A stretch of DNA of 64,000 bases from positions 65,528 through 129,527 of the forward strand of contig NZ_JAIXUB010000001.1 of the NCBI RefSeq assembly GCF_027484205.1. The letters run 5' to 3'. Shown here in pieces: positions 24,565-44,158 of this stretch (the first letter of the stretch is position 1; the number at the start of each line of letters is the position of its first letter). The notes under the pieces were generated by a model. That model saw only the letters and a program-made list of their open reading frames with translations, was not told where the DNA came from and did no database searches. Origin of the DNA: Flavobacterium sp. (GTDB lineage Bacteria > Bacteroidota > Bacteroidia > Flavobacteriales > Flavobacteriaceae). A program made the translations under genes and the position numbers.

Positions 24565-24699
24565 CACTAAAAACGGTTTAAAAAAATGGTGTGGCTCGGG
24601 ATTTTTCAGAAATGGTAATTGTTGAATCAAAGTTTTATTTACATTTGTAATTGGCAGTGAATGAAGTACGCAACTTCTTGTAGCCGCAAAACGTTAGGC
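24565..24699 (+). repeat. attC-like site 1 (family A)
   Basis: R'' CACTAAA ... GCAACTTCTTGTAGCCGC AAAAC GTTAGGC; TACATTTG at 24640. Confidence 0.85.
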
Positions 24700-24721
24700 T
24701 CAACTATTACAACTAATACTT

Positions 24722-25405
24722 ATGGAAGGAAAAAAGCTAATAAGAACATTATTATCATTAAGCATATTATTCATTCTGATTACGATTGGTTTTTATTTAT
24801 ACCAATTTGGTAGTTTAAGACTTTCAGAAAATAACGAAGATTGGTCTAACTTTTCAAACTATTTTAATGGAATTTTGACACCAATATTAACCTTGTTAAA
24901 TTTACTCATGTTTGCTTACCTAAGTTTTAAATTAGTACAAATTGAGGATGATAGAAATCACTGGACATTACAAGAATTAGCAAGACCATATGCAAATTTA
25001 ATAACTGAAAACACTTCTGGAAGTGTCGAAATTACGGTTCATAATGTTGGACTTGGGCCAATGATATTAACCGATTTCAGAATTTTCAAAGATCCTGAAA
25101 AAACATACAGGAACTTTTACTATTTAATTAATGACATCGCTGATTATGAAAATATAGGTCCAGAAATTCAACCAAAAATTGATTCTTTTGAAGTCAACTC
25201 TGAAAGTGGTGCAATTGCGAAAGACAAATCGCATTGTTTATTGAAAGTTTATTTTTTAGAGGATAGTCAACAAAACATGCAATTTTTAGATTTAATACGT
25301 ATTCATTTGAATGATTATACTCTATCCATAACTTATAGTGATATGTATGGTAGAGAAATAGAATGTATGCGCGAAAAGTTAAATTTTAAACCTTGGAACA
25401 ACTAG
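24722..25405 (+). CDS. Cassette: hypothetical membrane protein (two N-terminal TMs, WSNFSNYFNG motif)
   Basis: ORF fills the interval between sites 1 and 2. Confidence 0.7.
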   Translation: MEGKKLIRTLLSLSILFILITIGFYLYQFGSLRLSENNEDWSNFSNYFNGILTPILTLLNLLMFAYLSFKLVQIEDDRNHWTLQELARPYANLITENTSGSVEITVHNVGLGPMILTDFRIFKDPEKTYRNFYYLINDIADYENIGPEIQPKIDSFEVNSESGAIAKDKSHCLLKVYFLEDSQQNMQFLDLIRIHLNDYTLSITYSDMYGREIECMREKLNFKPWNN

Positions 25406-25409
25406 CAGC

Positions 25410-25542
25410 GCCTAATAGACGTTTCTCGAAATTGCGAATTTTGTGGTAAGTTCACGTTTACGTTTCGCAAGAATTTTTATCTTTAACAGAAAATAATTCG
25501 TTCCGAAGTTCGCAACTGACGAGAAGCGGCAGAACGTTGTGC
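25410..25542 (+). repeat. attC-like site 2 (family B)
   Basis: GCCTAAT A GACGTTTCTCGAAATTGCG ... CGCAACTGACGAGAAGCGGC AGAAC GTTGTGC. Confidence 0.88.
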
Positions 25543-25581
25543 GTCATTTTAACCGAACAAAACCGTAGAAAAAAATAAACA

Positions 25582-26034
25582 ATGTGTGATTTTACCAAAG
25601 GCATTAAATTATGTAGTTGTGAAAACGAAACTATAAAATTTCGTGAACAAGAGTTCTATAAAATGTTAGAAGGCGAACTTGTTAAAATTCCCAATAAAAA
25701 GAATGAAAATGTCCCCATAATTTTTATTTGGAGATTATTCAAATTGAAATCTAAAAATAATAATTACGAAATTGGAAGGTATATGCTTCCTGTAAACGAT
25801 ATTGGAAATGGATTAGATGCTGAATGGATTGCTTTAAATTTAAATTCAGAAAATTGTTTTGATTTTGATTACACTCCTGATGAGGGTGATAATTTATTCA
25901 TTCAGACCAACGAAATTGCTTCAGCATATATTTCATTCATTTTTAGGAATGGTCAATGGAAAATTGACCATTACAGCCCTTTTTCGTGGGATATTAGACA
26001 TGTTAAAGATGGACAAATTAAGGAAACTTTATAA
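25582..26034 (+). CDS. Cassette block gene 1: hypothetical protein
   Basis: 150 aa ORF; similar to the next ORF. Confidence 0.7.
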   Translation: MCDFTKGIKLCSCENETIKFREQEFYKMLEGELVKIPNKKNENVPIIFIWRLFKLKSKNNNYEIGRYMLPVNDIGNGLDAEWIALNLNSENCFDFDYTPDEGDNLFIQTNEIASAYISFIFRNGQWKIDHYSPFSWDIRHVKDGQIKETL

Positions 26035-26043
26035 AAAGTAATA

Positions 26044-26556
26044 ATGTTTGAAATAATAGATATAAATTTCGTTGAAGCAGATATACTTGAAAAAGAAATA
26101 ATTTCTTTTCACATTCCTCATTCAAAGATGCTTAATGAAGACCACAAATATTTTAAAAAAAGAATTGTTTGGACTTTAATAGAATGGAAAGACACTGAAG
26201 ATTATCCATATAAAGAAATTGAAGAAGACGAGAAAAACGGAATTCGTTATCATGAAATACCTGAACAAATAGTAAGTGAAATTAATGGAATTACAAGTGA
26301 ATCTATTAAAGATAAAATTAACGTGAATGATTGTTTTGCTTTTAATTACAACCCAAGAGAATTCGATAAATTGATATTGAGAAGTGATTACGAGTTTCAA
26401 GAGATTAAAGCAATTAGACAGCCTTACAATAGAATATTCAAATATATTGCTCTGACTTACAAAAACGGAGTTTGGGAGATTGATGAGAAAGTGGAAAAAA
26501 GAGTTTTTAAGAAAAGTAGAACAGGAATAGTAAAAATAATGTTAGAAAATGAATAA
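26044..26556 (+). CDS. Cassette block gene 2: hypothetical protein, distant paralogue of 25582-26034
   Basis: Shared motifs W.L..K, NG......N...CF.F.Y.P.E.D.L, YI.....NG.W.ID. Confidence 0.7.
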   Translation: MFEIIDINFVEADILEKEIISFHIPHSKMLNEDHKYFKKRIVWTLIEWKDTEDYPYKEIEEDEKNGIRYHEIPEQIVSEINGITSESIKDKINVNDCFAFNYNPREFDKLILRSDYEFQEIKAIRQPYNRIFKYIALTYKNGVWEIDEKVEKRVFKKSRTGIVKIMLENE

Positions 26557-27076
26557 TGAAAAAAACAGAAAAATGAATGAAAATATAAGATATAGAATAT
26601 ATAAAACCAGTATAAATATTTTCTTTATTTCAATTTATAGTAATTCAAAAGTTTATGAAATCAAAAGTGGTAAAAGTTCAATTTTACCGGGAATAAAATA
26701 TTCAATAATAACAATTTTATTTGGATGGTGGGGATTTGGATTTCCTTGGAAAAAAATTCAAGAGTTAAAAAATTCATTAACGGCATTACATATAAATTTC
26801 TCTGGTGGAGAAGACTATACCAAGGTAATAACTGAAATGGATTACGAAGAAAAAACAGTTTGGGTTTATAACAATCTAAAACATGAACTTTTTGAAAAAA
26901 CTAATATTGAAACTATTGACATTATTATTGATTTACAAACTAATTCAAAATTGACTCTTGAAGGAAATATAATTTTTATAATTGAAAGTTTAAAAAAGTT
27001 GAACATTGTAAACTTAAGAAATTCAGATATAGAAGAAATTATTAATAAAATAAAGCAGTTTGATTATAGAAATTAA
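26549..27076 (+). CDS. Cassette block gene 3: hypothetical membrane protein
   Basis: TM segment ITILFGWWGFGFPW; overlaps the previous stop codon. Confidence 0.65.
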   Translation: MNNEKNRKMNENIRYRIYKTSINIFFISIYSNSKVYEIKSGKSSILPGIKYSIITILFGWWGFGFPWKKIQELKNSLTALHINFSGGEDYTKVITEMDYEEKTVWVYNNLKHELFEKTNIETIDIIIDLQTNSKLTLEGNIIFIIESLKKLNIVNLRNSDIEEIINKIKQFDYRN

Positions 27077-27295
27077 ATGAAAAATGAAATGAAAAAATTA
27101 AATATAATTTTAATTGTATTCTTAAGCTTAACTTCTTTAATATTTGCAGTATTAAATAACTCTAACGCATAAGATTTAAAAACAACTGAAGTAGAACTAA
27201 ATTCAGCAAGAGATTCTTTATCAATGTATCAAGGGAATTATAACAAATTGAATGTACAATATAAAATTTTGGAAAAATCACTTGAAGAAAAATAA
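27077..27295 (+). pseudogene. Small TM/coiled-coil ORF with an in-frame stop
   Basis: MKNEMKKLNIILIVFLSLTSLIFAVLNNSNA*DLKTT...LEEK*; internal TAA at 27170-27172. Confidence 0.55.
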
Positions 27296-27303
27296 AACCG
27301 AAC

Positions 27304-27437
27304 GGCTAACTGCAGTTACAAGAAATTGCTAGGCTTGATTTTTGTCAGAATTCGTTATGCAGAATCAAAGTTTTGGTTATATCTGTAATTGACAGTGAAT
27401 GAAGTACGCAACTTCTTGTAGCTGCGAAACGTTAGCA
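27304..27437 (+). repeat. attC-like site 3 (family A)
   Basis: GGCTAAC T GCAGTTACAAGAAATTGC ... GCAACTTCTTGTAGCTGC GAAAC GTTAGCA. Confidence 0.9.
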
Positions 27438-27445
27438 GATATAGC

Positions 27446-27841
27446 ATGAAAAAAGAACATCAAAACATATTAGAATTAATTCCTAAAGATAAAGGTGATT
27501 ATAAAACTGCTCAAAATCTAAAAAAACACAATATTTCGAAATTAAAATCAATTATACCAAAATTATTGGAATGGATTCAAGATATGAATTGGCCAATTTC
27601 AGTAATAGTTGCTGAATATTTAGTCGATAATTTTAGTGAAATAGAAAACGAAATATATCCAATACTAAATACTAACGATGACATTTGGAAATGGAATGTA
27701 ATAAATATTTTTAAGGATTTAATTGGAGATGAAAAAAGCATTGAATTAATAAAAAGAATAGCTGAAAATCCAACAGAAATGGAAAAACTTGAAGAATTAG
27801 ATTTACTATGCAAAGAAGTTATTGAAAAACGAAAATGGTAA
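27446..27841 (+). CDS. Cassette: DUF5071-like protein
   Basis: LIPKDKGD and LLEWIQDMNWPIS motifs, recognised from memory of the family. Confidence 0.65.
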   Translation: MKKEHQNILELIPKDKGDYKTAQNLKKHNISKLKSIIPKLLEWIQDMNWPISVIVAEYLVDNFSEIENEIYPILNTNDDIWKWNVINIFKDLIGDEKSIELIKRIAENPTEMEKLEELDLLCKEVIEKRKW

Positions 27842-27851
27842 AAACTACATC

Positions 27852-27986
27852 TGCTAACAGCAGTTACAAGAAATTGCTATGCATGGGATTTATCAGAATT
27901 GGAAATTGTTGAATCAGAGTTTTGTCTATATTTGTAATTGTCAGTGAGTGAAGTACGCAACTTCTTGTAGCGGCGAAACGTTAGCA
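27852..27986 (+). repeat. attC-like site 4 (family A)
   Basis: TGCTAAC A GCAGTTACAAGAAATTGC ... GCAACTTCTTGTAGCGGC GAAAC GTTAGCA; TATATTTG at 27927. Confidence 0.9.
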
Positions 27987-28007
27987 TCAATTTTAAATTT
28001 ACGATGT

Positions 28008-28298
28008 ATGTCATTTTTGAAAAATATATTTGGGAAAAAATCTAATGAAGAAGGTACTTTAACTCAAATTAGATTTACAAAAGATAACATTAAAAATTTC
28101 CCGAAATACGAAGCACTGTTGATTGATGGAAAAATAAAGTTTGATTCTTCTGGAAGGCTTCGTTATCTGCATGGAGCACCCGTTGGAGATATGTTATTAA
28201 TAAGAATGAATAAGGATGGTAAAGCTGTCTACAAAGAGTCTGCTAAAGAATGGTTTGATCCAGAAAGTCAAAAAGCAAAAGACTTTTTTTGGAAGTAA
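28008..28298 (+). CDS. Cassette: hypothetical protein (start MSFLKNIFGKK)
   Basis: The ORF-track start 27948 lies inside site 4; the ATG at 28008 is the plausible start. Confidence 0.65.
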   Translation: MSFLKNIFGKKSNEEGTLTQIRFTKDNIKNFPKYEALLIDGKIKFDSSGRLRYLHGAPVGDMLLIRMNKDGKAVYKESAKEWFDPESQKAKDFFWK

Positions 28299-28305
28299 AA
28301 ACTGC

Positions 28306-28444
28306 TGCTAACATTGGTTTTCATCAATGGCAAGGCTTGGGATTTATTTGTCATTGGAAAGGTTTTTAATTTAAAGTTTTGTTAATACTTGTAAAGGCTT
28401 GGGCTTGGTTCGTCACCACTTCTTGAAGCCGCGAAACTTTAGCC
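28306..28444 (+). repeat. attC-like site 5 (family A; R' core mutated to TTT)
   Basis: TGCTAAC ... CCACTTCTTGAAGCCGC GAAAC TTTAGCC. Confidence 0.8.
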
Positions 28445-28479
28445 GTCAGTTTGACAGAACGCAAAAAAATCTAAACAGA

Positions 28480-28893
28480 ATGAAAAAAATAATTAGTTTA
28501 ATATATTTTTCAATTTTAATGAATAGCTGTGCTTGGCTTGATGAAAGTGAACATCAAAAAATTATTGGACAATATGAAATTGGCTGGAACGACCTAGAAT
28601 CTAATCGAGCAATTACGAAAAAAATCGAAAATTCTGAAAGTAATTATCAAGAAATTGTTGGATGTTATGTTTTTGCAGTCGGTCATAATGAAAATTTCAT
28701 AATAGCAAAACAACACCAAAATTTTAATTCGAAAACTAATTATTACTTAATAGATATTAAAAAAAATGAAAAAGATTACTCAAAAGGTGTTTTCGGACCT
28801 TTAAACGAAACCGAATTTGAAAAAATGAAAACAAAATTTAATATTAAAAACTTAAAATTTGACTTAAAATTTGCTGATGAACCATATAATTAA
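28480..28893 (+). CDS. Cassette: lipoprotein (DUF3997-like)
   Basis: Lipobox LMNSC; VGHNENFIIAKQH and YYLIDIK motifs; start corrected out of site 5. Confidence 0.6.
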   Translation: MKKIISLIYFSILMNSCAWLDESEHQKIIGQYEIGWNDLESNRAITKKIENSESNYQEIVGCYVFAVGHNENFIIAKQHQNFNSKTNYYLIDIKKNEKDYSKGVFGPLNETEFEKMKTKFNIKNLKFDLKFADEPYN

Positions 28894-28956
28894 ATCAAAC
28901 AAAAAATCGAAAAGAAAAAATCGAAAAGAAAAACTCATAAAAGAAAAAAAACGAAC

Positions 28957-28975
28957 GGCTAACAGCAGTTTACAA
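28957..28975 (+). repeat. attC-like site 6, collapsed (R'' and start of left arm only)
   Basis: GGCTAAC AGCAGTTTACAA, then AT-rich sequence and the ATG at 28993; no loop, right arm or R'. Confidence 0.6.
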
Positions 28976-28992
28976 ACATTTTTTACATCGTT

Positions 28993-29343
28993 ATGAAAGA
29001 ACTTTATCCTGAATTAATAGACTATATTTTCCAACATTGTTGGAAATATTACTCTGAAATAGAGAAAGAAGCAATCGACCATCATATTGGAGCTGTGAAG
29101 TTTGATAAATTTGCTTTTCAAAGTCAGAAACTTGATGATGCAAAAACCAGATTTTCAACAGAAAATCCAGAAGCTTTAAAATTATTGGAGAATGGTTACT
29201 CAGAATTTATTAAAACTACAGCGACTAGAATTTTTAATGAGCACGAAAACGAATTGGAATTGAATTTTTGTCCTGGATGTGGAAAAATAGCCAGAACTCC
29301 AAAAGCCAAACAGTGTAGGTTTTGCAGAAATGATTGGCACTAA
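28993..29343 (+). CDS. Cassette: hypothetical protein with a C-terminal zinc ribbon
   Basis: CPGCGKIARTPKAKQCRFC. Confidence 0.7.
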   Translation: MKELYPELIDYIFQHCWKYYSEIEKEAIDHHIGAVKFDKFAFQSQKLDDAKTRFSTENPEALKLLENGYSEFIKTTATRIFNEHENELELNFCPGCGKIARTPKAKQCRFCRNDWH

Positions 29344-29351
29344 AAAACGGC

Positions 29352-29483
29352 AGCTAACAGCGGTTTCTCTCAATTGCGAATTTTGTAGTAAATTCACGTT
29401 TACGTTTCGCAAGAATTTTTATCTTTAACAGAAAAAAATCAGTTCCGAAGCTCACAATCTCTCCAAGCGCCGAAACGTTAGCA
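29352..29483 (+). repeat. attC-like site 7 (family B)
   Basis: AGCTAAC ... GAAAC GTTAGCA; loop shared with sites 2, 12, 13, 14. Confidence 0.87.
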
Positions 29484-29522
29484 GAAAGCGTCTCCAAAAA
29501 TCACGTAACTAAATATGAAAAG

Positions 29523-29837
29523 ATGTTTAAATTAAAAAAAATAACAATTTTACAAATTGAAAAATTTTTAACAATTATATTTTTCTTGATTTTTGTAATC
29601 TTAACAAGAAACACATTAATTGAATCTTACAATAGAATAGAAGATTTGAATACTGAAAAAACTATCAGAATTGTAAATGATAAATCTCAGAATGAAAATT
29701 TGGTTAATTTTACAAAAAAAGACAAAGCTAATTTCTCAAATCATTTGGATGTTTTAATTTTACTCATAATTGGTTTTTTTATTATGTTTTACAAGGTTCA
29801 GAAAAAAATAAATGTAGAAAAAAATAAAATTGAATAA
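29523..29837 (+). CDS. Cassette: small two-TM protein
   Basis: Two hydrophobic segments. Confidence 0.6.
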   Translation: MFKLKKITILQIEKFLTIIFFLIFVILTRNTLIESYNRIEDLNTEKTIRIVNDKSQNENLVNFTKKDKANFSNHLDVLILLIIGFFIMFYKVQKKINVEKNKIE

Positions 29838-29911
29838 TCGGTTTTTAAAAGTTAAAACTAATTGCAAAATAATTGCAAAACAAAAACAGAATTACTAAAA
29901 AAAACGGCTTC

Positions 29912-30050
29912 TACTAACAGCCATTTGCACCAATGACGAGGCATGGGATTTATCAGAAATTGGAAAGGTCTTTAATTAAAAGTTTTGGTTACATTTGTGA
30001 AGGCTTGGTCTTGGTTTATCGCCACTTCATGAAGCCGCGAAACGTTAGCG
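29912..30050 (+). repeat. attC-like site 8 (family A)
   Basis: TACTAAC ... CCACTTCATGAAGCCGC GAAAC GTTAGCG; TACATTTG at 29990. Confidence 0.87.
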
Positions 30051-30087
30051 GTAATTTTAAAAAACGCACGTGAATAAAATACGAAAC

Positions 30088-30528: not shown

Positions 30529-30536
30529 AACACTAT

Positions 30537-30699
30537 CGCTAACACAGGTTTTATGCTATTGCTGCGCTTGGGCTTTTTTGGACGCTTGGTCTCTTATCTT
30601 TTTTCTTTTTCATCACGTTTTATTTCCAAAAGTTTTCGGTATATTTGTTATCGGCTGTGATAAAAGCAGCAACTGTCGCAAAGCGGCATTACGTTGGTG
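30537..30699 (+). repeat. attC-like site 9 (family C)
   Basis: CGCTAAC A CAGGTTTTATGCTATTGCTG ... CAGCAAC ... GTTGGTG; TATATTTG at 30640. Confidence 0.85.
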
Positions 30700-30745
30700 G
30701 CAAGACTACATCAACAGACAAAAAAATCAATAAATAAAGAAAAAA

Positions 30746-31834: not shown

Positions 31835-31843
31835 AAGCCCAGC

Positions 31844-31871
31844 CACCAACATGCAGTTTGGCAAACAGTTT
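31844..31871 (+). repeat. attC-like site 10, collapsed (R'' joined directly to the next cassette start)
   Basis: CACCAAC ATGCAGT TTGGCAAACAGTTT; TTGGCAAA is complementary to the next cassette's end TTTGCCAAC at 32510. Confidence 0.65.
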
Positions 31872-31905: not shown

Positions 31906-32028
31906 ATGAGTGATAAAGAAAAACCAGAAAAACCTACAAATCAATCAGAAAAACCAACTGATGGAGGTTCAACATTTATAACTTTGAATGATGAAACACC
32001 AAGCCGAAATACAACAAACAAAGACTAA
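31906..32028 (+). CDS. Cassette: 40-aa hydrophilic peptide, missed by the ORF track
   Basis: MSDKEKPEKPTNQSEKPTDGGSTFITLNDETPSRNTTNKD*, preceded by an A-rich leader. Confidence 0.4.
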   Translation: MSDKEKPEKPTNQSEKPTDGGSTFITLNDETPSRNTTNKD

Positions 32029-32484
32029 CCAAAATAGCAAAGTTTTAAAAGCTTTATTATAAGAAGTGGAAATTATAGTCAAATGTTTACCGTTTATCTC
32101 AATTGATTTTTGGTAAGTAAATAGAATATTAATTCTTGACTTTTCTTCTGTTTCTGAAGTTATTTTATCGAAGTTGTCTGGCGCAATTCCATTAAACCTT
32201 AAATCTAAAGGAGTAATGGCTTTTCTTGTATGGAATACGATGATGCCTCCGAATAATACTATTGAATAAAGTATGTAGCTTTTTAACGTATAAAACTTAC
32301 CTTCTATAATGTCAGAAACAGAATATCCGAAAACGGCTAATATTAAAGTTAATAAATAAAAAAGTCTATTTCTTGTTTCTCGTATAGAGTCATTGATGTG
32401 AATAAGCAAATCTTTTGCTTCACTTAATTGAATACTAAATAATTCGTTTTTTGTTTTCATATTTGTAAAATTAAACATTTTCAC
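31969..32484 (-). CDS. Cassette: three-TM membrane protein in reverse orientation
   Basis: Only substantial minus-strand ORF in the array; probable ATG at 32460 (MKTKNE). Confidence 0.7.
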   Translation of the reverse strand: MKMFNFTNMKTKNELFSIQLSEAKDLLIHINDSIRETRNRLFYLLTLILAVFGYSVSDIIEGKFYTLKSYILYSIVLFGGIIVFHTRKAITPLDLRFNGIAPDNFDKITSETEEKSRINILFTYQKSIEINGKHLTIISTSYNKAFKTLLFWLVFVCCISAWCFIIQSYKC

Positions 32485-32511: not shown

Positions 32512-32676
32512 TGCCAACACAGGTTTTATGCTATTGCTGCGCTTGGGCTTTTTTAAAGGTTTGGTCTCTTATCTTTTTTCTTTTTTTAAAACGTTTTTTC
32601 TTTCAAAGTTTTCGGTATATTTGCTTTGGTCTTTGACAAAAATCAGCAACAGACATAAAGCCTGGGAACGTTAGCT
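32512..32676 (+). repeat. attC-like site 11 (family C)
   Basis: TGCCAAC A CAGGTTTTATGCTATTGCTG ... CAGCAACAGACATAAAGCCTG GGAAC GTTAGCT; TATATTTG at 32616. Confidence 0.9.
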
Positions 32677-32700: not shown

Positions 32701-33279
32701 ATGAGAAACTATATCTTTATTTTAACTCTAATTGTCTTATTTGGATGTTCAACTCCAAAGCAGCTTAATGATTACTATAGTGAAGATAAAAACATAAATC
32801 TTTATACTTTTGTAGGCAAGAAAATATCTGTAACAGAATTTGATCCAAACGCAGAAGAAAAAGGAGAAACTATTGTTGACAAAGTGACTGGTGAAAATCA
32901 AGTTAGAAAGTCGCACATAATGGATTTAGGATTTCGATGTAAATATTCAGTCCTGAAAAACGTCTTCAATAAATTAGAAAACGACACTATTGATTTTGTT
33001 GCTTATGATCATTACGGAAATCCCAGGTTTTCGGAATATAAAACTGTATTACTTTACATTTCAAAAAGCACAAAAGGAAATTATTATTTTCATCAAAAAT
33101 ATCAGTTCGACTACTTGGAAAAAACTTCTGATGGAAAGTTTTATGGATACACATATGACAGAAAAGAAAAAAGAAAAAGAATCACATTTAAAAACAAAAA
33201 AATTGCCAGTATAGAAGATTTATTTGTTAAGAAAAAAGAAGAAGTATTCAAATCGCTATTTAAAAAAAACGGCAACTAA
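32701..33279 (+). CDS. Cassette: lipoprotein
   Basis: Lipobox LFGC; its stop TAA lies inside R'' of site 12. Confidence 0.7.
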   Translation: MRNYIFILTLIVLFGCSTPKQLNDYYSEDKNINLYTFVGKKISVTEFDPNAEEKGETIVDKVTGENQVRKSHIMDLGFRCKYSVLKNVFNKLENDTIDFVAYDHYGNPRFSEYKTVLLYISKSTKGNYYFHQKYQFDYLEKTSDGKFYGYTYDRKEKRKRITFKNKKIASIEDLFVKKKEEVFKSLFKKNGN

Positions 33280-33405
33280 CAGCCGTTTCTCGTAATTGCG
33301 AATTTTGTAGTAAATTCACGTTTACGTTTCGCAAGAAATTTTATCTTTAACAGAAAACAATTAGTTCCGAAGTTCGCAACCTCACCAAGCGCTGGAACGT
33401 TAGCC
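33274..33405 (+). repeat. attC-like site 12 (family B)
   Basis: AACTAAC A GCCGTTTCTCGTAATTGCG ... GGAAC GTTAGCC. Confidence 0.88.
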
Positions 33406-33923: not shown

Positions 33924-34051
33924 GGCTAACAAGTGTTTGTAGCAATTGCGAATTTTGTGGTAAGTTCACATTTACGTTTCACAAGAATTTTTATCTTTAA
34001 CGGAAATTCGTTCCGAGGTTCTCAACTGCGTTAAGCGGCGGAACATTAGAC
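33924..34051 (+). repeat. attC-like site 13 (family B; R' core ATT)
   Basis: GGCTAAC ... GCGGC GGAAC ATTAGAC. Confidence 0.85.
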
Positions 34052-34737: not shown

Positions 34738-34870
34738 GTATAACAGCTGTTTGGCAAGATTGTTAATTTTGTAGTAAATTCAAGTTTACTTATCGCAAGA
34801 AATTTTATCTTTAACATAAAATAATCAGTTCCGAAGTTCGCAACTAACGAGAAGCGGCGGAACATTAGCA
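34738..34870 (+). repeat. attC-like site 14 (family B; R' core ATT)
   Basis: GTATAAC ... CGCAACTAACGAGAAGCGGC GGAAC ATTAGCA. Confidence 0.87.
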
Positions 34871-35419: not shown

Positions 35420-35556
35420 TGCTAACAGCGGTTGCAAAAAATGGCGTTGCTCGGGATTGATTTGAATTGAGAAAGATTTTTAATTAAATTTTCGGTATAT
35501 TTGTGAGGGCTTGGTCTTGGCTTATCTCCACTTCTTGTAGCCGACGAACGTTTTCT
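35420..35556 (+). repeat. attC-like site 15 (family A)
   Basis: TGCTAAC ... CCACTTCTTGTAGCCG ... GAAC GTTTTCT; TATATTTG at 35496. Confidence 0.87.
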
Positions 35557-36351: not shown

Positions 36352-36506
36352 AGATAACACAAGTTTTATGCTATTGCTTCGCTTAAGCTTTATTTAGAAA
36401 GTTTGGTGATAATTTTTTTTAATCACGCTTTCTCTCTCAATTTTTCGGTATATTTGTTAAAACAAGTCTTAAAACACAACAGACGTCAAGCCAAAAAACG
36501 TTCTGT
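36352..36506 (+). repeat. attC-like site 16 (family C)
   Basis: AGATAAC A CAAGTTTTATGCTATTGC ... AAAAC GTTCTGT; TATATTTG at 36449. Confidence 0.82.
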
Positions 36507-36527: not shown

Positions 36528-38330
36528 ATGAAAATAAGCATCTTAATAATATCCCTTTTTATTTTTGGACAAACTTTTGGCCAAAATAAACAATTGAAAG
36601 ACAGAATTAATCAAGTAGAAAACAACTTAATTCCCTATGTGCCTGTAAAAGGTTTTAATGGTTGGAATATTATTGACAGAATGAAGTATTACAAAGTTCC
36701 AGGATTAAGTATTGCTGTAATAAAAGATTACAAAATTGACTGGGCTAAAGGATATGGATTAGCAGACACAATTCAAAAAACAAAGGTTACAACCGAAACG
36801 ATGTTTTCAGCAGGTTCAATCAGTAAATTTTTAATGGCAGTTACAGCTCTTAAATTAGTTGAAGAGGGAAAAATTGGCTTGGATAGCCCAATTAATGATT
36901 ATCTCACTTCTTGGAAAATTACCGAGAATGACTATACCAAAAAAACGCCTGTTACTCTAAGAATGTTGTTAAGCCATTCGGCAGGTACTTCTCAAACTTC
37001 CTATTTTGGTTTTACACCAACAGAACCACTACCAACGATTGTAGATGTGTTGAATGGTGCGAAAATTTCACAAACAAGAGCTGTAGTTGTAAATAGTGAA
37101 CCCAACAAAGAATTTCGATATTCTGGTGGAGGTAGTATGATTGCGCAAATGGTTTTGATGGACGTTAGCAAAAAGAGTTTTGGTAATTTAACACAACAAG
37201 TACTATTTGACAAAATTGGAATGACCAACTCAACATTTGAACAACCAGTTCCAGAAAAATTTTCTAAACAATGTTCTTGGGCTTATTCGCAAGCCTCATG
37301 GTTTAAAGGAATGCCTTATGTCTATCCACAACAAGCAGCAGCAGGTCTTTACTCAACTCCAACTGACTTGGCTAAATTTTTCATAGATGTTCAAAACTCA
37401 TTCAATGGAAAAGGCAAAGTTTTGAGTGAAGAAATGACAAAAAAAATGCTAACATCGCAAGTAAATGTTTCTGATGGTGGCTATAAAGAACAAATGGCAA
37501 TTGGACCATTTCTAATTCAACGTACAGACAACAAAGACCCAAATGGAGTTTACTTTGAATTTACTGGTGTTAATGCAGGTTTCTTGGCTTATGGAATAGC
37601 GAGTGTACAAGGAGGAAATGGAGTTATTGTAATGCTTAATTCTGGTGACAATCAAAACGGAATTGGAAAAGAAATTAGAAGAGCCGTAGCCAAAGTGTAT
37701 AATTGGACTAACTTTTTACCCGATGAAATTCAACCAATCAATCTGCCTGAAGATGAATTAAACAAAATGGCTGGACGATATAGAATGGCTACAGACGAAG
37801 TACTTTATTTAAGAAAAGAAAAAAACTATCTAGTAGAGAATATAAACAATGGAAATGAAATTTACTGCTTCCCAATCTCAAAAGATAGCATTGTATTTAC
37901 GGATTACAACATCAAGGGCTTCTTTAAAAGAAATGAAAATGGAGAAATAATCGGGCTTCAAAATATTTATCAAGAAAAGCCAATGCCAAAAATGAAAGAC
38001 AATGAATTTTCGCCAAGTGAATATTTAAATATGCAGCAATATGATGAAGCCAAAAAAGCATTTGCAGCAATGAAAATGAATGAAGGACAAATTACATACT
38101 TAGCCTATGACTTGATGAATAAAAAGCCATTAAACCCATTTGCCGTAAAAACCATTTTAGATTTAGCAACAGAGCAACATCCGAATTCTTCAATGGTTTA
38201 CAGTCGTTGGGGTGACTATTATTTAAAACTAAATGACAAACAAAATGCATTAAAGAGCTATCAAAAAGCCATAGATCTTGACCCAAACGACCAACAAACA
38301 AAAGATATTTTGGAAACCTTAAAAAAATAA
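36528..38330 (+). CDS. Cassette: secreted serine hydrolase (beta-lactamase/PBP-like family) with a C-terminal TPR
   Basis: VPGLSIAVI, SxxK = SISK, LLSHSAG, FRYSGGG, YPQQAAAGLYSTPTDLAKF; TPR YQKAIDLDPND. Confidence 0.85.
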   Translation: MKISILIISLFIFGQTFGQNKQLKDRINQVENNLIPYVPVKGFNGWNIIDRMKYYKVPGLSIAVIKDYKIDWAKGYGLADTIQKTKVTTETMFSAGSISKFLMAVTALKLVEEGKIGLDSPINDYLTSWKITENDYTKKTPVTLRMLLSHSAGTSQTSYFGFTPTEPLPTIVDVLNGAKISQTRAVVVNSEPNKEFRYSGGGSMIAQMVLMDVSKKSFGNLTQQVLFDKIGMTNSTFEQPVPEKFSKQCSWAYSQASWFKGMPYVYPQQAAAGLYSTPTDLAKFFIDVQNSFNGKGKVLSEEMTKKMLTSQVNVSDGGYKEQMAIGPFLIQRTDNKDPNGVYFEFTGVNAGFLAYGIASVQGGNGVIVMLNSGDNQNGIGKEIRRAVAKVYNWTNFLPDEIQPINLPEDELNKMAGRYRMATDEVLYLRKEKNYLVENINNGNEIYCFPISKDSIVFTDYNIKGFFKRNENGEIIGLQNIYQEKPMPKMKDNEFSPSEYLNMQQYDEAKKAFAAMKMNEGQITYLAYDLMNKKPLNPFAVKTILDLATEQHPNSSMVYSRWGDYYLKLNDKQNALKSYQKAIDLDPNDQQTKDILETLKK

Positions 38331-38442
38331 ACAACTGAATTTATAAAGAAAAGAAAAATGTCATTTAAAATGATTCGTCAATTGCATGAAAAATCAATCA
38401 TTCCTACTGATGTTTCGATACAAACTTATTAAAAGACACAAT

Positions 38443-38567
38443 CGCTAATAGTGTGCAAAACTTCATTACTTAGTTTTCGTTAAGTAGTGCGATTTGTTAC
38501 TATTTTCGTTTTGAGTTAATCCAAAATCTCTGTTGCCAAGATTTAACGAGTTTTCCGAACGAATTAT
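38443..38567 (+). repeat. attC-like site 17, heavily degenerate
   Basis: CGCTAAT...GTGCAAAACTTC versus GAGTTTTCC GAAC GAATTAT; GTT core absent. Confidence 0.35.
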
Positions 38568-38640
38568 TTTTATAACTATATAGATTTCGAAAACTTACAT
38601 AAAAAAGAAAATTTTAAATTAATAAAGTTTTTCGTTAAAA

Positions 38641-39336
38641 ATGAGAAAAATAAATTTATACTTAATAATACTTGTTTCAATTTTTCTAACAAACAAGTCG
38701 TTTTCACAATCTATAATTAATGACAAAGATGGTTTTGTAAATGTCCGAAAAGAGGCTAATAAAGACAGTCAATTAATTGATACCTTAAAAAATGGTCACA
38801 TAATATATGATTTAGAACGAGAAGGAAATTGGGTAAATATCGATTATTTTAAAAATAACGAATCTTTAAGCGGTTATATTTACAACGATAGGTTTAAACG
38901 AATCGAGAAATTTAAAGAAATTAAGAGAAAAACAATCAGTGCTAATGAGGTAGTTTTAGGCAATGATAGTATTGAAATTAGAGTAACTGAGGCAAAATTT
39001 GAACCTAAAAAACACAAATTCACTTATTCGAAGGAAAATAAAAAGGTAATTACTCTCATTGATAAAAAGCAGTATTACGGAACTGATGGCGAAGTACCAA
39101 AAACACAATATGAAGAAATTAAAATGAAGATTAAAGATAAAGTAATTATACTTCCAAAAAGTGCGACAGAAAATTTATATGAACCGAGTATAAATAAAAT
39201 TACTGTTCATTATGACGAAATTAATAAAACAATCTACATAGATTCAATTAATAGCGATGGTGCTGGCGGTTATGTTGTGGTTTGGAAAATAAAAAAAGAA
39301 AAATTTGAAGACAGATATATATTTTATGGTTTTTAA
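38641..39336 (+). CDS. Cassette: secreted bacterial SH3-domain protein
   Basis: Signal peptide; DKDGFVNVRKE...GNWVNI...GYI; NSDGAGGY.VVW. Confidence 0.7.
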   Translation: MRKINLYLIILVSIFLTNKSFSQSIINDKDGFVNVRKEANKDSQLIDTLKNGHIIYDLEREGNWVNIDYFKNNESLSGYIYNDRFKRIEKFKEIKRKTISANEVVLGNDSIEIRVTEAKFEPKKHKFTYSKENKKVITLIDKKQYYGTDGEVPKTQYEEIKMKIKDKVIILPKSATENLYEPSINKITVHYDEINKTIYIDSINSDGAGGYVVVWKIKKEKFEDRYIFYGF

Positions 39337-39348
39337 TTTAACAAAAAA

Positions 39349-39514
39349 AGCTAACCCTAACTCCAGTTTTTAATTCTGTTTATGCTTACGCTTGCCATTT
39401 TGTTATTCGCGAAAAGTACTCAGATATTTTCAATTTAATCTTTCAAATTAATTCAGTAAATTTGTTTTGCTAGTGATTGCACCAACATCAGGCGTAAGCC
39501 GAAACACGTTAGTC
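39349..39514 (+). repeat. attC-like site 18 (divergent family)
   Basis: AGCTAAC/CCCTAAC; GCTTACGCTTG/CAGGCGTAAGC inverted repeat; TAAATTTG at 39457; GTTAGTC. Confidence 0.6.
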
Positions 39515-39541
39515 GCTTTACTAAAAACTTGAATAAAAAAC

Positions 39542-40099
39542 ATGAGCGAATTACAAACAAAGTATCAAAATGCAATAAAGTTTGCTGCAAAAAAGCATGC
39601 TGATAAAAATCAATTAATCCCGGGAACAAACTTATCTTACGTAGTTCATTTAAGCAATGTTGCAATGGAAATTTTAATTGCTTCTCAAAAAACAGAAACG
39701 TTTGATACAGAATTTGCAATTCAAGTCGCTTTACTCCACGACATATTGGAAGATACAGAAACTACTTTTGATGAACTTGTAAATGAATTTGGAGAAGAAA
39801 TTGCAAAAGCAATTTTATCTTTAACAAAGAACTCTAATATTCCAAAAGAAAAAAGAATGGACGATAGTCTAAATCGTATTAAAGAATTGAAGAAAGAAGT
39901 TTGGGCAGTAAAATTGGCAGACAGAATTACAAACTTACAAGTTCCACCAGAACATTGGAGTATTGAAAAGATTACAGAATATCAAAAACAAGCTGTTCAA
40001 ATACATAATTCCTTAAAAGGCGGAAATGAGTACTTAGAAAACAGACTTAGTAAAAAAATATTAGATTACTTAAAATATTGCGTAACAACTACAGAATAA
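39542..40099 (+). CDS. Cassette: HD-domain small alarmone hydrolase-like protein (RelA/SpoT HD, Mesh1-like)
   Basis: AAKKHADKNQ...YVVHLSNVA, ALLHDILEDT, VKLADRITNL. Confidence 0.85.
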   Translation: MSELQTKYQNAIKFAAKKHADKNQLIPGTNLSYVVHLSNVAMEILIASQKTETFDTEFAIQVALLHDILEDTETTFDELVNEFGEEIAKAILSLTKNSNIPKEKRMDDSLNRIKELKKEVWAVKLADRITNLQVPPEHWSIEKITEYQKQAVQIHNSLKGGNEYLENRLSKKILDYLKYCVTTTE

Positions 40100-40153
40100 T
40101 TACTGATACGAACATCGATTTCAATAATTTACAACAAAAGATAATTTTAAAAT

Positions 40154-40735
40154 TTGAATATGAGAACCAATTCGAAAGTTAAAAAAGATGAAAAGAGCAA
40201 TTTAAAAAAACATAAAAAAATCATCAATTTATCAGTAATAACAGGATTCCTTTTTTTATTGATTTGGATTTTCTTTTTTTATCAAAAGACATTTATAGAT
40301 ATTAAAATTGTATTAGCATTACTTTTCATTCCGAGTTTAATTGTAACAATACTTTTCTATAAAAAATTTGTGCCAATAAGTTTAGAAAACACTCTCCTGA
40401 ATATTTTATCATACATACTCGTCTATTTTCTTATTACTATTCCAATTGGTAATTTTGTAGTAATTTTATTTTTTTCGATAAACACTTTTCTAGCTTCTGA
40501 TCATATTGAAAAAGTAAACTTGAAAATCGAAAATGTGAATGTCACAAAAATCCGAAAACGAACACTTAACAAAAATAACTACTATTCCCATTTTGATGTT
40601 ACCTATAATGGCGTTTTAAAAAGATTTAAAACGGGAGATACACCAATTGATGAACTTGAAAACAAAACTGTAGAGTTCAAGTTAGCCAAAGGTTTTTTTG
40701 GATATTATATAATTAAAGGACGCAAAATTCAATAA
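40154..40735 (+). CDS. Cassette block: three-TM membrane protein
   Basis: Hydrophobic segments; C-terminal KGFFGYYII. Confidence 0.65.
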   Translation: MNMRTNSKVKKDEKSNLKKHKKIINLSVITGFLFLLIWIFFFYQKTFIDIKIVLALLFIPSLIVTILFYKKFVPISLENTLLNILSYILVYFLITIPIGNFVVILFFSINTFLASDHIEKVNLKIENVNVTKIRKRTLNKNNYYSHFDVTYNGVLKRFKTGDTPIDELENKTVEFKLAKGFFGYYIIKGRKIQ

Positions 40736-40737
40736 TA

Positions 40738-41424
40738 ATGATACTACTTACAGAAAAACAAGCCAATGATTTAATCACGTTTGTAGAAGATAAATTAACT
40801 ACAAAATCGTGCAATCACAAATTAACTTTTGCAATGCAATGGGCAAAAAAAAATAAAATTGACTTAGAAGATTTTGAAGATTTGATGTTGGAACAAGGTT
40901 GCGGTTGTGATTGCGAAGTGGTTTTGAACTTACCAAATGAAGGCGATTTAGAGTTGGAAGAAGAAAAAGAAAAAAACGATGATAACATAAACCCATTCAA
41001 AATCCCAGCTATTTTTGTTGAAGACTTATCGAAATTGTACGACAAAGCACTTTTTACAAGTGATGATTTAGATTATAATATCCACACAAGTCCAAATGAA
41101 ATTTTAATTCCAGCACCATACGGATATAAACCTAAAAAAAAAATGCCCAGAAGCGACTGGTTTTTCATTAGTTCAATAAGTGAAATGCCTAATGGTTTAG
41201 GTTTTGTAAAGCAAATTGAACCCATTTCAGCAATTGAATTTTCAAAAAAAATAAGAAACTCAAATATTGAATGTTTAAAAGACTTTTCGCCAAGAGCGGC
41301 ATCTTATTATTTTTCAAGAATCGAATTGCAACAAATTGGTAATGGAATGTGGTGCCATTTTTTAGAAAGAACAGGAATTGGAGGATTTAGTGTAGATTTA
41401 AAAATTAACAAAGCAGTAAGATGA
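40738..41424 (+). CDS. Cassette block: DUF2695-domain protein
   Basis: CNHKLTFAMQW...LEQGCGCDCEVVLN. Confidence 0.7.
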   Translation: MILLTEKQANDLITFVEDKLTTKSCNHKLTFAMQWAKKNKIDLEDFEDLMLEQGCGCDCEVVLNLPNEGDLELEEEKEKNDDNINPFKIPAIFVEDLSKLYDKALFTSDDLDYNIHTSPNEILIPAPYGYKPKKKMPRSDWFFISSISEMPNGLGFVKQIEPISAIEFSKKIRNSNIECLKDFSPRAASYYFSRIELQQIGNGMWCHFLERTGIGGFSVDLKINKAVR

Positions 41425-41434
41425 TAAAAACTTA

Positions 41435-41566
41435 CACTAAAAGCGGTTTGATAAAATGGCAAATTTTATGGTAAATACAAGTTTATATTTTACAAGAAAT
41501 TTTATCTTTATCAGAAAATAATTAGTTCCGAGGTTTTCAATCTTGTTAAACGCCAGAACATTACTA
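41435..41566 (+). repeat. attC-like site 19 (family B; cores AAA/ATT)
   Basis: CACTAAA ... family-B loop ... AGAAC ATTACTA. Confidence 0.78.
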
Positions 41567-41660
41567 GCAATTGACTAGCAGGATGGAGAATTCAATAACT
41601 TAATGCAGAAAAGATATTTTTTATCTTTATTGAATTGTGGAAAAAAACAAAATTTAAAAT

Positions 41661-42152
41661 ATGTTAATACCAATTATTTTCTTTTCAACTTTTTTTATAT
41701 TAATATTATTTTTTATAAACTCAATAAATAAAAACAGAGAAAATCAATATAAATTCTTAATTGAAAGTTTAAAAACTGAGACAGAACTTTATATTGAGCA
41801 GACCAAAATCGCAACTATGACAATGGGGCGAAATAATCGAGATTTTTTATTTAATCGTTGCGATTTATATTTGACTAAAAACGCTATGATAATTTTAGGT
41901 TTTACTAAAAATAGTTTTCTAAAACAACTCTCTTTACCAATTATTTTAACAACAGAACTTAGCGAACTTTCAAATAGGTTTCCATTTGCATATGTAAAAA
42001 AAGTAAATAAGATAAGCTTTGAGAATAATATTGTGAAGATTAATTTTGGAGAAAAAGGAATTACTAAAACAGAAGTTACACTGAAATTTAACTCACTGAG
42101 CGAAATTGAAAAAACAAAAATTAAAGAATTAGTTGAAAAAAACTGCTGGTAA
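41661..42152 (+). CDS. Cassette: hypothetical protein with an N-terminal TM
   Basis: Its stop TAA lies inside R'' of site 20. Confidence 0.7.
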   Translation: MLIPIIFFSTFFILILFFINSINKNRENQYKFLIESLKTETELYIEQTKIATMTMGRNNRDFLFNRCDLYLTKNAMIILGFTKNSFLKQLSLPIILTTELSELSNRFPFAYVKKVNKISFENNIVKINFGEKGITKTEVTLKFNSLSEIEKTKIKELVEKNCW

Positions 42153-42277
42153 CAACAGTTTGGTAAAATGGAGAATTTTGTGGTAAATACAAGTTTATAT
42201 TTTACAAGAAATTTTATCTTTATCGAAAATAATTAGTCCCGAGGTTTGTAACCTTGTTTAGTACCATAACGTTAGCA
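42147..42277 (+). repeat. attC-like site 20 (family B)
   Basis: TGGTAAC ... ATAAC GTTAGCA. Confidence 0.8.
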
Positions 42278-42284
42278 AACATTT

Positions 42285-43124
42285 ATGAAAAACAGTATCT
42301 TTTTCTTCATATGTTCATTATTCTCACAATTTGCACATTGCCAGGAAATGAGCATGGAGGATGAATTATATGTATTTCACTCTCCTTCAACTGGTAAAGT
42401 TGGCTATATGAATAATCATGATGAAATTATTATTCCTGCACAATATTCATCAGCTAGCTCTAAATTTAATATGTATGTTGTAACTCTTGGTAAAATAAAT
42501 TCAGGAGAAGAAAAATATGCTCTTTATGATAGTCGTGGTAATTTCATTTTAGGATTTGAAAATAATTATGAATTTATTAGTTTGTCAGATTATGAGGAAA
42601 GTCTTATTCAAGTTCAGAAAAATGGCAAATATGGTTACGTAAATAAAGAAAATGAGATTAAAATTCCAATCATATATGACGAGGTATTACAATTAGGGAA
42701 TGGATTGATAACGGCTCACAAGAATGGCAAATATGGTTTTATTGATTTTTCAGGCAATATAATTATTGAATTTCAATATGAGGATGTATTCATCTTTGGA
42801 GAGATACAAAGTGACAATCACAAATACTGCCAAATTTCAATAAATGGAAAGTATGGGTTTATTAACGAAAATGGACAAAATGTAATTCCATGTATCTATG
42901 ATTCAGTAACTCAATTTCACAAAGATATTTCAGAAGTAACTATTAATGAAAAACATGGAGTTATAAATACAAGTGGAGAGATTTTAATCCCAATATTGTA
43001 CGACCATTTAAAAGAAGATTACGAAACAAGTCAATTTGTAGCAACTATCAATTCAAAACCAAAGTATGAATTTATATACGACAGAACAGGGATTTTTATA
43101 AAGAGAAGAAAAGTTTCTAACTAA
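42285..43124 (+). CDS. Cassette: secreted WG-repeat protein
   Basis: Repeated KNGKYG(Y/F)I..G..IIP..YD units. Confidence 0.85.
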   Translation: MKNSIFFFICSLFSQFAHCQEMSMEDELYVFHSPSTGKVGYMNNHDEIIIPAQYSSASSKFNMYVVTLGKINSGEEKYALYDSRGNFILGFENNYEFISLSDYEESLIQVQKNGKYGYVNKENEIKIPIIYDEVLQLGNGLITAHKNGKYGFIDFSGNIIIEFQYEDVFIFGEIQSDNHKYCQISINGKYGFINENGQNVIPCIYDSVTQFHKDISEVTINEKHGVINTSGEILIPILYDHLKEDYETSQFVATINSKPKYEFIYDRTGIFIKRRKVSN

Positions 43125-43132
43125 AAAACTTT

Positions 43133-43265
43133 TACCAACAGCAGTTTCTCTCAATTGAGAATTTTGTAATAAATTCACGTTTACGTTTCGTAAGAAATTT
43201 TATCTTTGATATAAAATAATTGGTTCTAAGATATGCAACTGAAAAGAAGTGACGGAACGTTAGCA
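43133..43265 (+). repeat. attC-like site 21 (family B)
   Basis: TACCAAC ... TATCTTTG at 43201 ... GGAAC GTTAGCA. Confidence 0.85.
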
Positions 43266-43290
43266 TAATTTTTTTATATCAACAACATAG

Positions 43291-44007
43291 ATGAATATTA
43301 TTAGAGAGATAAAACATTTTTTTCAAAGACGAAAAGCACTTAATGAAATTTATGATGATCTTAATAACTTAGATGAAGTTCATTTAGACAAAAGAATAGA
43401 AATTTTCAATGAAATTGTAACTCCAAAGTTAGCAGAAATAGGGTTAGTCAATTGGAATGGTAAATACATTTGGTTTAGTAATTTTAACGAAGAGGGAATT
43501 AAACACGTAGTGGAATATAATGTGTTTAAGTATTTTGGTGGATCTTTTTCGTATGGAAACTGTTATAACTTCATACCAACTATTTCTGGACGTAAATTAA
43601 TTTATCACAAGACCGACAAGTCAACTAAAATCATTTATTACAAAAAGTCTGAAGGTTGGCAAAAAAGTGATGATGAACATTCTCCTATAAACATAGATAA
43701 GGTAAGTACTGTAAACGAAGAAAAATTTCGTAAAAGTTTAAATGAAGTTTTAGATAGAAATATTTCAAAATTTCAAAAATGGTTTCAACAGAATGAATCT
43801 ATCGAACAAAATATTCAAAATTTAATAAAAGATATTGAACAAGAAAAAAAAGAATTTATTCGTAGAATTATATCCTTTGATTACATTCTATGCTTTTTGT
43901 ACACTCGGAAAGGTGATGTCGATGCCGCCAAAAAACATTTTAATCAACACATAAAAAGAAATTTAAGTAGTCCAACAGAAATAGAACTTTTAAAAGAGAA
44001 AATATAA
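43291..44007 (+). CDS. Cassette: hypothetical cytoplasmic protein
   Basis: 238 aa ORF between sites 21 and 22. Confidence 0.7.
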   Translation: MNIIREIKHFFQRRKALNEIYDDLNNLDEVHLDKRIEIFNEIVTPKLAEIGLVNWNGKYIWFSNFNEEGIKHVVEYNVFKYFGGSFSYGNCYNFIPTISGRKLIYHKTDKSTKIIYYKKSEGWQKSDDEHSPINIDKVSTVNEEKFRKSLNEVLDRNISKFQKWFQQNESIEQNIQNLIKDIEQEKKEFIRRIISFDYILCFLYTRKGDVDAAKKHFNQHIKRNLSSPTEIELLKEKI

Positions 44008-44021
44008 ATTATGCAAGCTTC

Positions 44022-44158
44022 TGCTTACAACACCTTCAAGAAATGTCCATACAAGGGATTTATCAGAAATTGGAAAGTTTTAATTTAAAGTTTTAGTTAT
44101 ATTTGTAAGGGCTTGGTTTTGGTTCATATCCACTTCTGGTAGCGGCAAAACGTTAGCA
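44022..44158 (+). repeat. attC-like site 22 (family A; R'' core TAC)
   Basis: TGCTTAC ... TATATTTG at 44098 ... CCACTTCTGGTAGCGGC AAAAC GTTAGCA. Confidence 0.82.

Follow-up and report, generated by a model that had tools for sequence, protein, structure and literature searches.

We analyzed a stretch of 64,000 nucleotides (nt) from a Flavobacterium sp. genome (assembly GCF_027484205.1, contig NZ_JAIXUB010000001.1, positions 65,528 to 129,527; hereafter the window, whose own numbering is used throughout). This chromosome segment is low in GC (about 30%) and stems from a freshwater sample; 93–99% of it was recovered in four DNA runs. Between positions 23982 and 45512 (~21 kb) it harbors a true, sedentary integron-type array of about 22 gene cassettes, and half of the attC recombination sites that separate them contain, in their central loop and upstream of the crossover, the -7 box of the Bacteroidota primary sigma factor (TAnnTTTG). 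A comparison with about 100 other Bacteroidota loci supports the view that about a third of Bacteroidota attC families have a putative sigma-A -7 promoter box in their unpaired loop, from which the next cassette would be transcribed. Given the anatomy of the array and a box that is enriched, strand-biased and conserved, we infer promoter activity, transcription start sites (TSSs) and an effect on expression, and we put the probability that the loop box is a promoter driving the next cassette at roughly 60%.

The window sites are real integron-type attC sites. The array consists of about 26 co-oriented open reading frames (ORFs) on the + strand, interspersed with repeated intergenic elements of 128–166 nt. 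Each element is opened by an R''-like box, (G/A)CTAAC, and closed by an R'-like box, AAC-G|TTAGC, so that the two boxes expected at the ends of integron sites (R'', RYYYAAC; R', G|TTRRRY) are both found there. Among the 20 full-length sites of the window, most R'' boxes read (G/A)CTAAC and most R' boxes AACGTTAGC, and the same boxes occur in the 299 full-length sites, from the window and about 100 Bacteroidota loci, in which we mapped R'' and R' and which form our comparative set. The trace of recombination itself is also preserved. The 7 nt that follow the GTT of R' match the reverse complement of the R'' of the next site at a mean of 5.0 of 7 positions, versus 3.2 of 7 for all pairs (permutation p < 5e-5); they fit the R'' of the next site and not that of their own, which is the pattern generated by G|TT crossover between circular cassettes and the array. 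At the array head, the tail GTTAGTGACA matches the reverse complement of the R'' of site 1 at 7 of 7 positions.

Secondary structure agrees with this assignment. In an alignment of 98 sites, compensatory changes were observed at all 14 stem pairs, and 86% of the stem cells were paired, versus 52% in shuffles and 29–43% when partners were slid. The covariance model built from this alignment retrieved 18 sites in the window, all on the + strand, and 406 sites in 100 Bacteroidota loci. A pattern restricted to the site ends and blind to the promoter motif, CTAACAGC-N95-125-GRAACGTTAG, identified 119 loci in species-representative genomes, the majority of them from Flavobacterium, other Flavobacteriales and other Bacteroidota. 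The sites thus combine a covarying outer stem with a largely unpaired center of roughly 70–100 nt, and an asymmetric internal loop with GAAAC on the R' side is visible in site folds. In four sites (5, 13, 14, and 19) the crossover base is mutated, with TTT or ATT in place of GTT, which suggests that the junctions there are no longer recombined.

The promoter box occupies a constrained place in these sites. Exactly 10 matches to the pattern TANNTTTG-N41-48-ACGTT were obtained in the window, every one of them on the + strand, whereas dinucleotide-preserving shuffles gave 0.89 ± 0.91 matches (maximum 5). A preliminary description of this DNA had placed exact TAnnTTTG boxes in 10 sites, ending 44–51 nt before the crossover G of R'; our pattern search reproduced every one of their coordinates. 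The one-mismatch elements that it had listed are likewise present at their coordinates, namely TATCTTTA in seven family-B sites (46–51 nt before the R' G) and TATATCTG in site 3. The 20 full-length sites are therefore divided into 10 with an exact box, eight with a one-mismatch element, site 5 with a degenerate box, and site 23 with none at the usual place. The exact boxes are spelled TATATTTG (six sites), TACATTTG (two), TAAATTTG and TATCTTTG (one each). TAnnTTTG is not enriched across the 64 kb as a whole (135 found vs 123 expected), which means that the signal is positional. In bottom-strand folds with the canonical stem (sites 3, 4, and 11), the box falls in the large central region outside the stem; it is fully unpaired in sites 4 and 11, whereas in site 3 three of its bases take part in a small local hairpin. 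The preliminary description had further stressed that the position is kept across families that are otherwise unrelated. The fixed placing stands, but families A, C, and D share a 21-nt module, AAGTTTTnGGTATATTTGT, around the box and are consequently not mutually independent there, which leaves about three independent box contexts in the window (A/C/D, site 18, and site 21 of family B).

More contexts are available in the comparative set. Among its 299 sites, an exact TAnnTTTG lies between the site boxes on the top strand in 89 and on the bottom strand in four, compared with 22.7 ± 4.3 and 17.1 ± 3.7 in shuffles. The shortage of antisense boxes (CAAAnnTA on the coding strand) inside sites fits selection against transcription into the upstream cassette. 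Counting sequence clusters (n = 96) rather than sites, 34 have a top-strand box and four a bottom-strand one, and TAnn stands before 15.6% of the TTTG occurrences on the top strand versus 1.6% of those on the bottom strand; in the motif-blind subset (91 sites), the box is present in 18 top strands versus two bottom strands. Across genomes, its distance to the crossover peaks at 46–51 nt, with other loop families at 55, 61–64, 71–82, and 92–93 nt, and the box is found in at least 10–15 unrelated flanking contexts at differing positions. The box is about 4–5 times better conserved than its surroundings: within-cluster diversity amounts to 0.022 for the six constrained positions and 0.042 for the two free ones, but to 0.102 in the flanks. 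A co-oriented ORF follows 79 of 86 box-bearing sites, and it starts at a median of 36 nt past the crossover, which leaves no room for a promoter of its own.

The box also agrees with what is known of host promoters. The -7 box of the Flavobacterium primary sigma factor spans -12 to -5 (PMC9723704), and in Bacteroidota it has six nearly invariant positions and virtually no G at the two free ones (PMC6847099, PMC9723704). The exact attC box matches this published element, as stated in the preliminary description, and all 10 window boxes fit TAHHTTTG, the form recognized for the primary sigma factor (sigma-ABfr). In Flavobacterium, transcription starts 4–5 nt past the -7 box, and AT-rich signals at -18 and -28 stand out more clearly than the -33 element, of which little can be seen (PMC6847099). 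Upstream of the attC boxes, taking one representative per cluster, T reaches 53–68% at positions -19 to -16 and A 44–53% at -23 to -21; the T-rich tract extends overall from -19 to -14, which fits the AT-rich signal that F. johnsoniae promoters are reported to have near -18 (PMC6847099). The same motif had been noticed ahead of housekeeping genes, and we indeed found a sense box within 150 nt of the called start in 10 of 25 flanking window genes. One of the boxes cited in that respect (18242) is located 3' of both a Flavo-1 RNA (Rfam RF01705, 49.9 bits; 18120–18196) and the ATG (18193) that comes first in frame in a MiaB-like radical-SAM gene; the Flavo-1 RNA is situated immediately 5' of the start called mechanically for this gene and overlaps it.

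Under the promoter reading, RNA polymerase would start about 5 nt past the box, that is, about 39–46 nt before the crossover G, and the transcript would run through the 3' arm of the site (L'-R') and the short 5' end of the cassette into the next ORF (start codons lie 14–53 nt past the crossover in the window, with one at 101 nt). As the box precedes the crossover (G|TT of R'), the putative promoter is part of the upstream cassette and would serve the downstream one; it would move with the former and drive whichever cassette happens to sit behind it. In an excised circle, the box would drive the ORF of its own cassette. Moreover, a transcript started in the loop would lack the 5' arm and hence could not form the attC hairpin. 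The proposal that each site drives the next cassette, already made in the preliminary description, is in this respect supported by geometry, the box being upstream of the crossover, on the coding strand, and strand-specific in the 299 sites; promoter activity is the predicted part of it.

Several observations weigh against this reading. About two thirds of the sites elsewhere and half of those here are devoid of the consensus, which is therefore not a general property of the sites; the earlier statement that nearly every site carries its own promoter was overstated, as the consensus is found in half of the sites here and in about 30% elsewhere. Families A, C, and D owe their box module to shared descent, and the sequence clusters of the comparative set are not fully independent. 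The within-cluster conservation test is mildly circular, because the clusters were chosen mostly as box-bearing, and the nhmmer profile with which sites were collected came from an alignment that included box-bearing sites. The leaders predicted from the attC boxes (57–94 nt in the window, median 84 nt across genomes) exceed the typical Flavobacterium length (median 24 nt, average 33 nt; PMC9723704, PMC6847099), though they remain within the known range. In the aligned sites, neither TTTG nor TTG occurs at a consistent -33 spacing, in line with the preliminary description; this absence weighs little because F. johnsoniae promoters, genome-wide, have a weak -33 element or none (PMC6847099). Finally, the window is present in none of the RNA runs searched, and contigs with homologous sites give no 5' ends. 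In these metatranscriptome contigs (runs X14–X21 and X36–X46, compared with L091:925-1057 and L033:2228-2362), A- and B-type sites are spanned in full and contig ends correspond to the borders of repeated modules, not to predicted TSSs; as assembled contigs lack 5'-end information, their coverage shows neither a TSS nor its absence. Sequences of A- and B-type attC sites occur in many freshwater, wastewater, and soil metatranscriptome assemblies, with a depth of up to about 220 in one run.

The element of family B has to be considered separately. This family accounts for eight of the 20 window sites and is widespread, with 112 further sites in 21 clusters. Its core across genomes, TATCTT[A>T>C>G][G>A], is located at the place of the exact box and is preceded by a conserved TTCACGAAnAAA. 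The positions that are free in a -7 box are always TC in this class, and -6 is variable; T at -6 usually goes with A at -5, so that the class stays one mismatch off the consensus and mostly avoids a perfect match. The eight one-mismatch elements of the window, including the seven TATCTTTA, do not fit TAHHTTTG. An exact top-strand TAnnTTTG is present in only nine of the 45 sites of the family-B cluster (C00), and TATCTTTG is found at the family-B position both in window site 21 and in a site of L108. We also found no conserved local hairpin that would account for TATCTTTA. The cross-genome conservation pattern of TATCTTTA is unlike that of a -7 box, and the preliminary view of it as a near match of the -7 element is therefore not supported by the comparison. 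The family-B element could act as a weak or regulated promoter, serve as a site for a different factor, or have some other role; the first of these is, in our opinion, rather doubtful.

We weighed three other explanations of the box. It could be a part of the recombination site, involved in recombinase or host-factor binding or in the single-strand fold, and resemble a promoter by accident. Such a role would agree with the nearly fixed distance of 44–51 nt to R' in most sites, with an upstream CAAA that can pair with TTTG into a small hairpin near the site center in several families (e.g., sites 1 and 18), and with the family-B element, which is conserved at the same place yet non-canonical as a -7 box. 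However, the box is situated in the unpaired center, outside the covarying stem, and it stands anywhere from 46 to 93 nt before the crossover, depending on the family. About a third of the sites have neither the exact box nor the family-B element, and B-type sites without an exact box keep the recombination signature. In addition, the symmetric tip of a hairpin is unable to explain the excess of top-strand over bottom-strand boxes (89 vs 4) or the preference for TAnn on one strand only, and attC-like matches in non-Bacteroidota loci (Gemmatimonadota, Latescibacterota) are devoid of the box. We therefore regard this explanation as improbable.

Alternatively, the box may be functionless, having been inherited as part of a small number of successful attC families of AT-rich genomes and copied along with cassette genesis, as for the species-specific VCR-type repeats of Vibrio arrays. 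The 21-nt module common to families A, C, and D, the many sites elsewhere that are near-identical copies of the same families, and the abundance of the motif in the sequence overall (135 copies in 64 kb) all point this way. Mere inheritance is nonetheless unlikely in view of the enrichment over shuffles and the antisense depletion described above, the 10–15 or more unrelated contexts at varied positions, and the conservation of the box relative to its flanks, with more variation at its two free positions than at its six constrained ones. A last explanation accepts real promoters but assigns them another selected role: expression of the cassette's own gene in the excised circle, production of a short non-coding RNA from the 3' arm, or modulation of the folding of the bottom (template) strand and thereby of recombination. 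In the circle, the box does read across G|TT into its own ORF, the predicted leaders are unusually long, and the transcription template is the recombinogenic bottom strand; but excised circles are transient and non-replicating, and the co-oriented ORF found directly after 79 of the 86 box-bearing sites makes read-through into it the simplest outcome. Such a role thus appears quite improbable as the main function, and a promoter that drives the next cassette remains the explanation that we favor.

The sites, the array head, and the recombinases of related arrays are listed below, together with three remnants (6, 10, and 17), which brings the numbering to 23. The box at the head is a candidate array promoter. 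The attI-like core that follows it, TATA(T/A)A..|GTTA, is found in the window (23930–23990), which has no integrase, and also after IntI-like recombinase genes in L013 (about 2860–2890), L070, and L071 (3' of the recombinase in the last two); in L013, an exact TATATTTG likewise lies 5' of the core.

Coordinates of the attC sites, site remnants, and array head (window numbering) and of the recombinase genes linked to related arrays (locus numbering)
Feature	Family	Position	Strand	Box	Box position	R' crossover base	Remarks
Array head		23898..23982	+	exact TATATTTG	23898-23905	G 23982	attI-like crossover ACTATATAA|GTTAGTGAC, 77 nt after the box
attC site 1	A	24565..24699	+	exact TACATTTG	24640-24647	G 24693	
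attC site 2	B	25410..25542	+	one-mismatch TATCTTTA	25478-25485	G 25536	
attC site 3	A	27304..27437	+	one-mismatch TATATCTG	27378-27385	G 27431	
attC site 4	A	27852..27986	+	exact TATATTTG	27927-27934	G 27980	box unpaired in bottom-strand fold
attC site 5	C	28306..28444	+	degenerate AATACTTG		G->T 28438	
Remnant site 6		28957-28992					R''/L'' only; fused to following ORF
attC site 7	B	29352..29483	+	one-mismatch TATCTTTA	29420-29427	G 29477	
attC site 8	C	29912..30050	+	exact TACATTTG	29990-29997	G 30044	
attC site 9	D	30537..30699	+	exact TATATTTG	30640-30647	G 30693	163 nt
Remnant site 10		31842-31866					looks like attC collapsed to R''+5 nt+R' (GCCACCAAC ATGCA GTTTGGCAAA)
attC site 11	D	32512..32676	+	exact TATATTTG	32616-32623	G 32670	box unpaired in fold
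attC site 12	B	33274..33405	+	one-mismatch TATCTTTA	33342-33349	G 33399	
attC site 13	B	33924..34051	+	one-mismatch TATCTTTA	33992-33999	A 34045	R' = ATT
attC site 14	B	34738..34870	+	one-mismatch TATCTTTA	34806-34813	A 34864	R' = ATT; exact TAATTTTG at 34764 in 5' half
attC site 15	C	35420..35556	+	exact TATATTTG	35496-35503	G 35550	
attC site 16	D	36352..36506	+	exact TATATTTG	36449-36456	G 36500	covariance-model match weak
Remnant site 17		38440-38460					doubtful
attC site 18	own family	39349..39514	+	exact TAAATTTG	39457-39464	G 39508	spotted by eye, missed by covariance model
attC site 19	B	41435..41566	+	one-mismatch TATCTTTA	41503-41510	A 41560	R' = ATT
attC site 20	B	42147..42277	+	one-mismatch TATCTTTA	42215-42222	G 42271	
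attC site 21	B	43133..43265	+	exact TATCTTTG	43201-43208	G 43259	
attC site 22	C	44025..44158	+	exact TATATTTG	44098-44105	G 44152	
attC site 23		45358..45518	+	none at usual place		G 45512	terminal; array end
Recombinase		L013:1737-2780					
Recombinase		L071:3950-4987					
Recombinase		L070:4350-5477	-				
Recombinase		L091:6691-7971	-				
Recombinase		L025					broken copy

In the related loci, a XerC/D-like tyrosine recombinase is encoded upstream of the array, in the same orientation as the cassettes. Checked for the additional domain that is specific to IntI, the L013 and L091 proteins score 208–218 bits on the integron-integrase model TIGR02249 (cut-off 265), with two matching stretches and the middle of the profile unmatched, and because of this such arrays may get reported as integrase-less; the L013 protein passes NF040815 ("tyrosine recombinase/integron integrase"). 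In our own window, no integrase gene was found within the 64 kb, either by a Pfam scan of the flanking ORFs or by tblastn with the recombinases of related arrays. The array is thus of the CALIN type (cluster of attC sites lacking an integron integrase), with an intact-looking head, and calling it an integron is not supported for the window. The 408-amino acid (aa) ORF that borders the array on the left (22531–23757, minus strand) was ruled out as an array-side integrase, as it encodes a LysM/NlpC-P60 hydrolase; the right flank is a carboxyltransferase gene (45619–47160, minus strand).

The majority of the cassette proteins have no Pfam family or match domains of unknown function (DUFs) only, as is usual for chromosomal cassettes. 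The largest cassette (36528–38330) encodes a 600-aa serine hydrolase with a beta-lactamase/transpeptidase fold (PF00144, in the 1e-48 range) and a C-terminal TPR; further products include an HD-domain protein, WG repeats, a protein sorted by the type IX secretion system (T9SS), DUF5071, DUF695, and DUF2695. The cassette opened by remnant site 10 contains the only reverse-oriented ORF of at least 110 aa in the array (31969–32484, minus strand). An Rfam scan of the window retrieved only two tRNAs and Flavo-1, with no match inside the array. The tRNA genes, in tandem on the minus strand (13563–13634 and 13679–13750), have identical Rfam scores and are probably a duplicated tRNA.

Integrons have been thought to be nearly absent from Flavobacterium (PMC9024848); our genome comparison shows that arrays with attC sites are common in this genus. 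In the literature searched, we found no description of promoter boxes systematically built into attC sites, nor of attC arrays in Flavobacterium. If the attC-loop promoters work, Bacteroidota arrays would be expressed throughout, and the expression of a gene would be set by which cassette precedes it. The Bacteroidota sigma factor ignores foreign promoters; an incoming cassette would, in such arrays, meet a host-type promoter ready in the preceding attC site. A broader scenario can be put forward tentatively, at slightly less than even odds: Bacteroidota arrays may have turned the spare attC loop into a portable, host-specific promoter, brought by each cassette for the one that follows it, which would make the array a set of independent transcription units whose strengths are reshuffled by recombination, a phylum-level alternative to the Pc gradient associated with a recombinase family that current integron finders miss. 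The strand-specific TAHHTTTG in the loop provides a simple sequence marker that makes the hypothesis testable in cultured strains; arrays with box-bearing sites occur, for instance, in Flavobacterium buctense JCM 30750 (L063, 13 sites), Flavobacterium sp. J49 (L103), F. terrisoli PT-3 (L106), and F. turcicum F-339 (L108).

In the classical view, cassettes are promoterless, their expression is set by the distance to Pc, and large arrays are mostly a silent "memory". The present array resembles the class 1–3 integrons and the V. cholerae superintegron in its co-oriented promoterless cassettes and attC hairpins, and it has an attI-like head with a consensus box 77 nt upstream. It differs from them in that the sites themselves have boxes, so that expression would not follow the distance to the head, and in that the window is devoid of intI and hence of a Pc inside intI. 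The contrast with classical integrons drawn in the preliminary description was nevertheless too sharp, as Vibrio arrays had earlier been found to contain internal promoters (PMC2945992, PMC11014356), and cassette-borne promoters have been reviewed (PMC8876359). In particular, the hybrid promoter of Vibrio sp. DAT722 (Michael and Labbate 2010; PMC2945992) has its -35 on the attC side of the upstream cassette, where it recurs in several attC, and transcribes the downstream cassette; but its -10 lies in the downstream cassette and is unique to one active junction, whereas here the loop contains the whole core, and does so in numerous sites and genomes. Cassette-borne promoters and gene-less promoter cassettes (cmlA, qacE, qnrVC1, toxin–antitoxin [TA]; Tansirichaiya et al. 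2019, PMC6557892; Blanco et al. 2024, PMC11014356) are likewise intra-array and independent of Pc, and one TSS has been mapped inside an attC site, in cassette F2 (PMC11014356). They are, however, sporadic and placed in the 5' untranslated regions of cassettes or constitute whole ORF-less cassettes, unlike a recurrent feature of the attC loop. Group IIC-attC introns (Leon and Roy 2010; PMC3001079) also place at attC an outward promoter that reads into the downstream cassette; this promoter is brought by an inserted mobile intron of ~2 kb, and there is no intron here. Intra-array promoters as such are thus already known, whereas we found no account, in the literature searched, of a complete core box of the host type that is recurrently built into the attC loop. 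The species-specific VCR/VXR repeats of sedentary chromosomal integrons share with the present sites a long attC (about 120–130 nt) and clade-wide conserved families. To our knowledge, no promoter role has been assigned to VCR loops, whereas in Bacteroidota differing loop families converge on the -7 box of their host.

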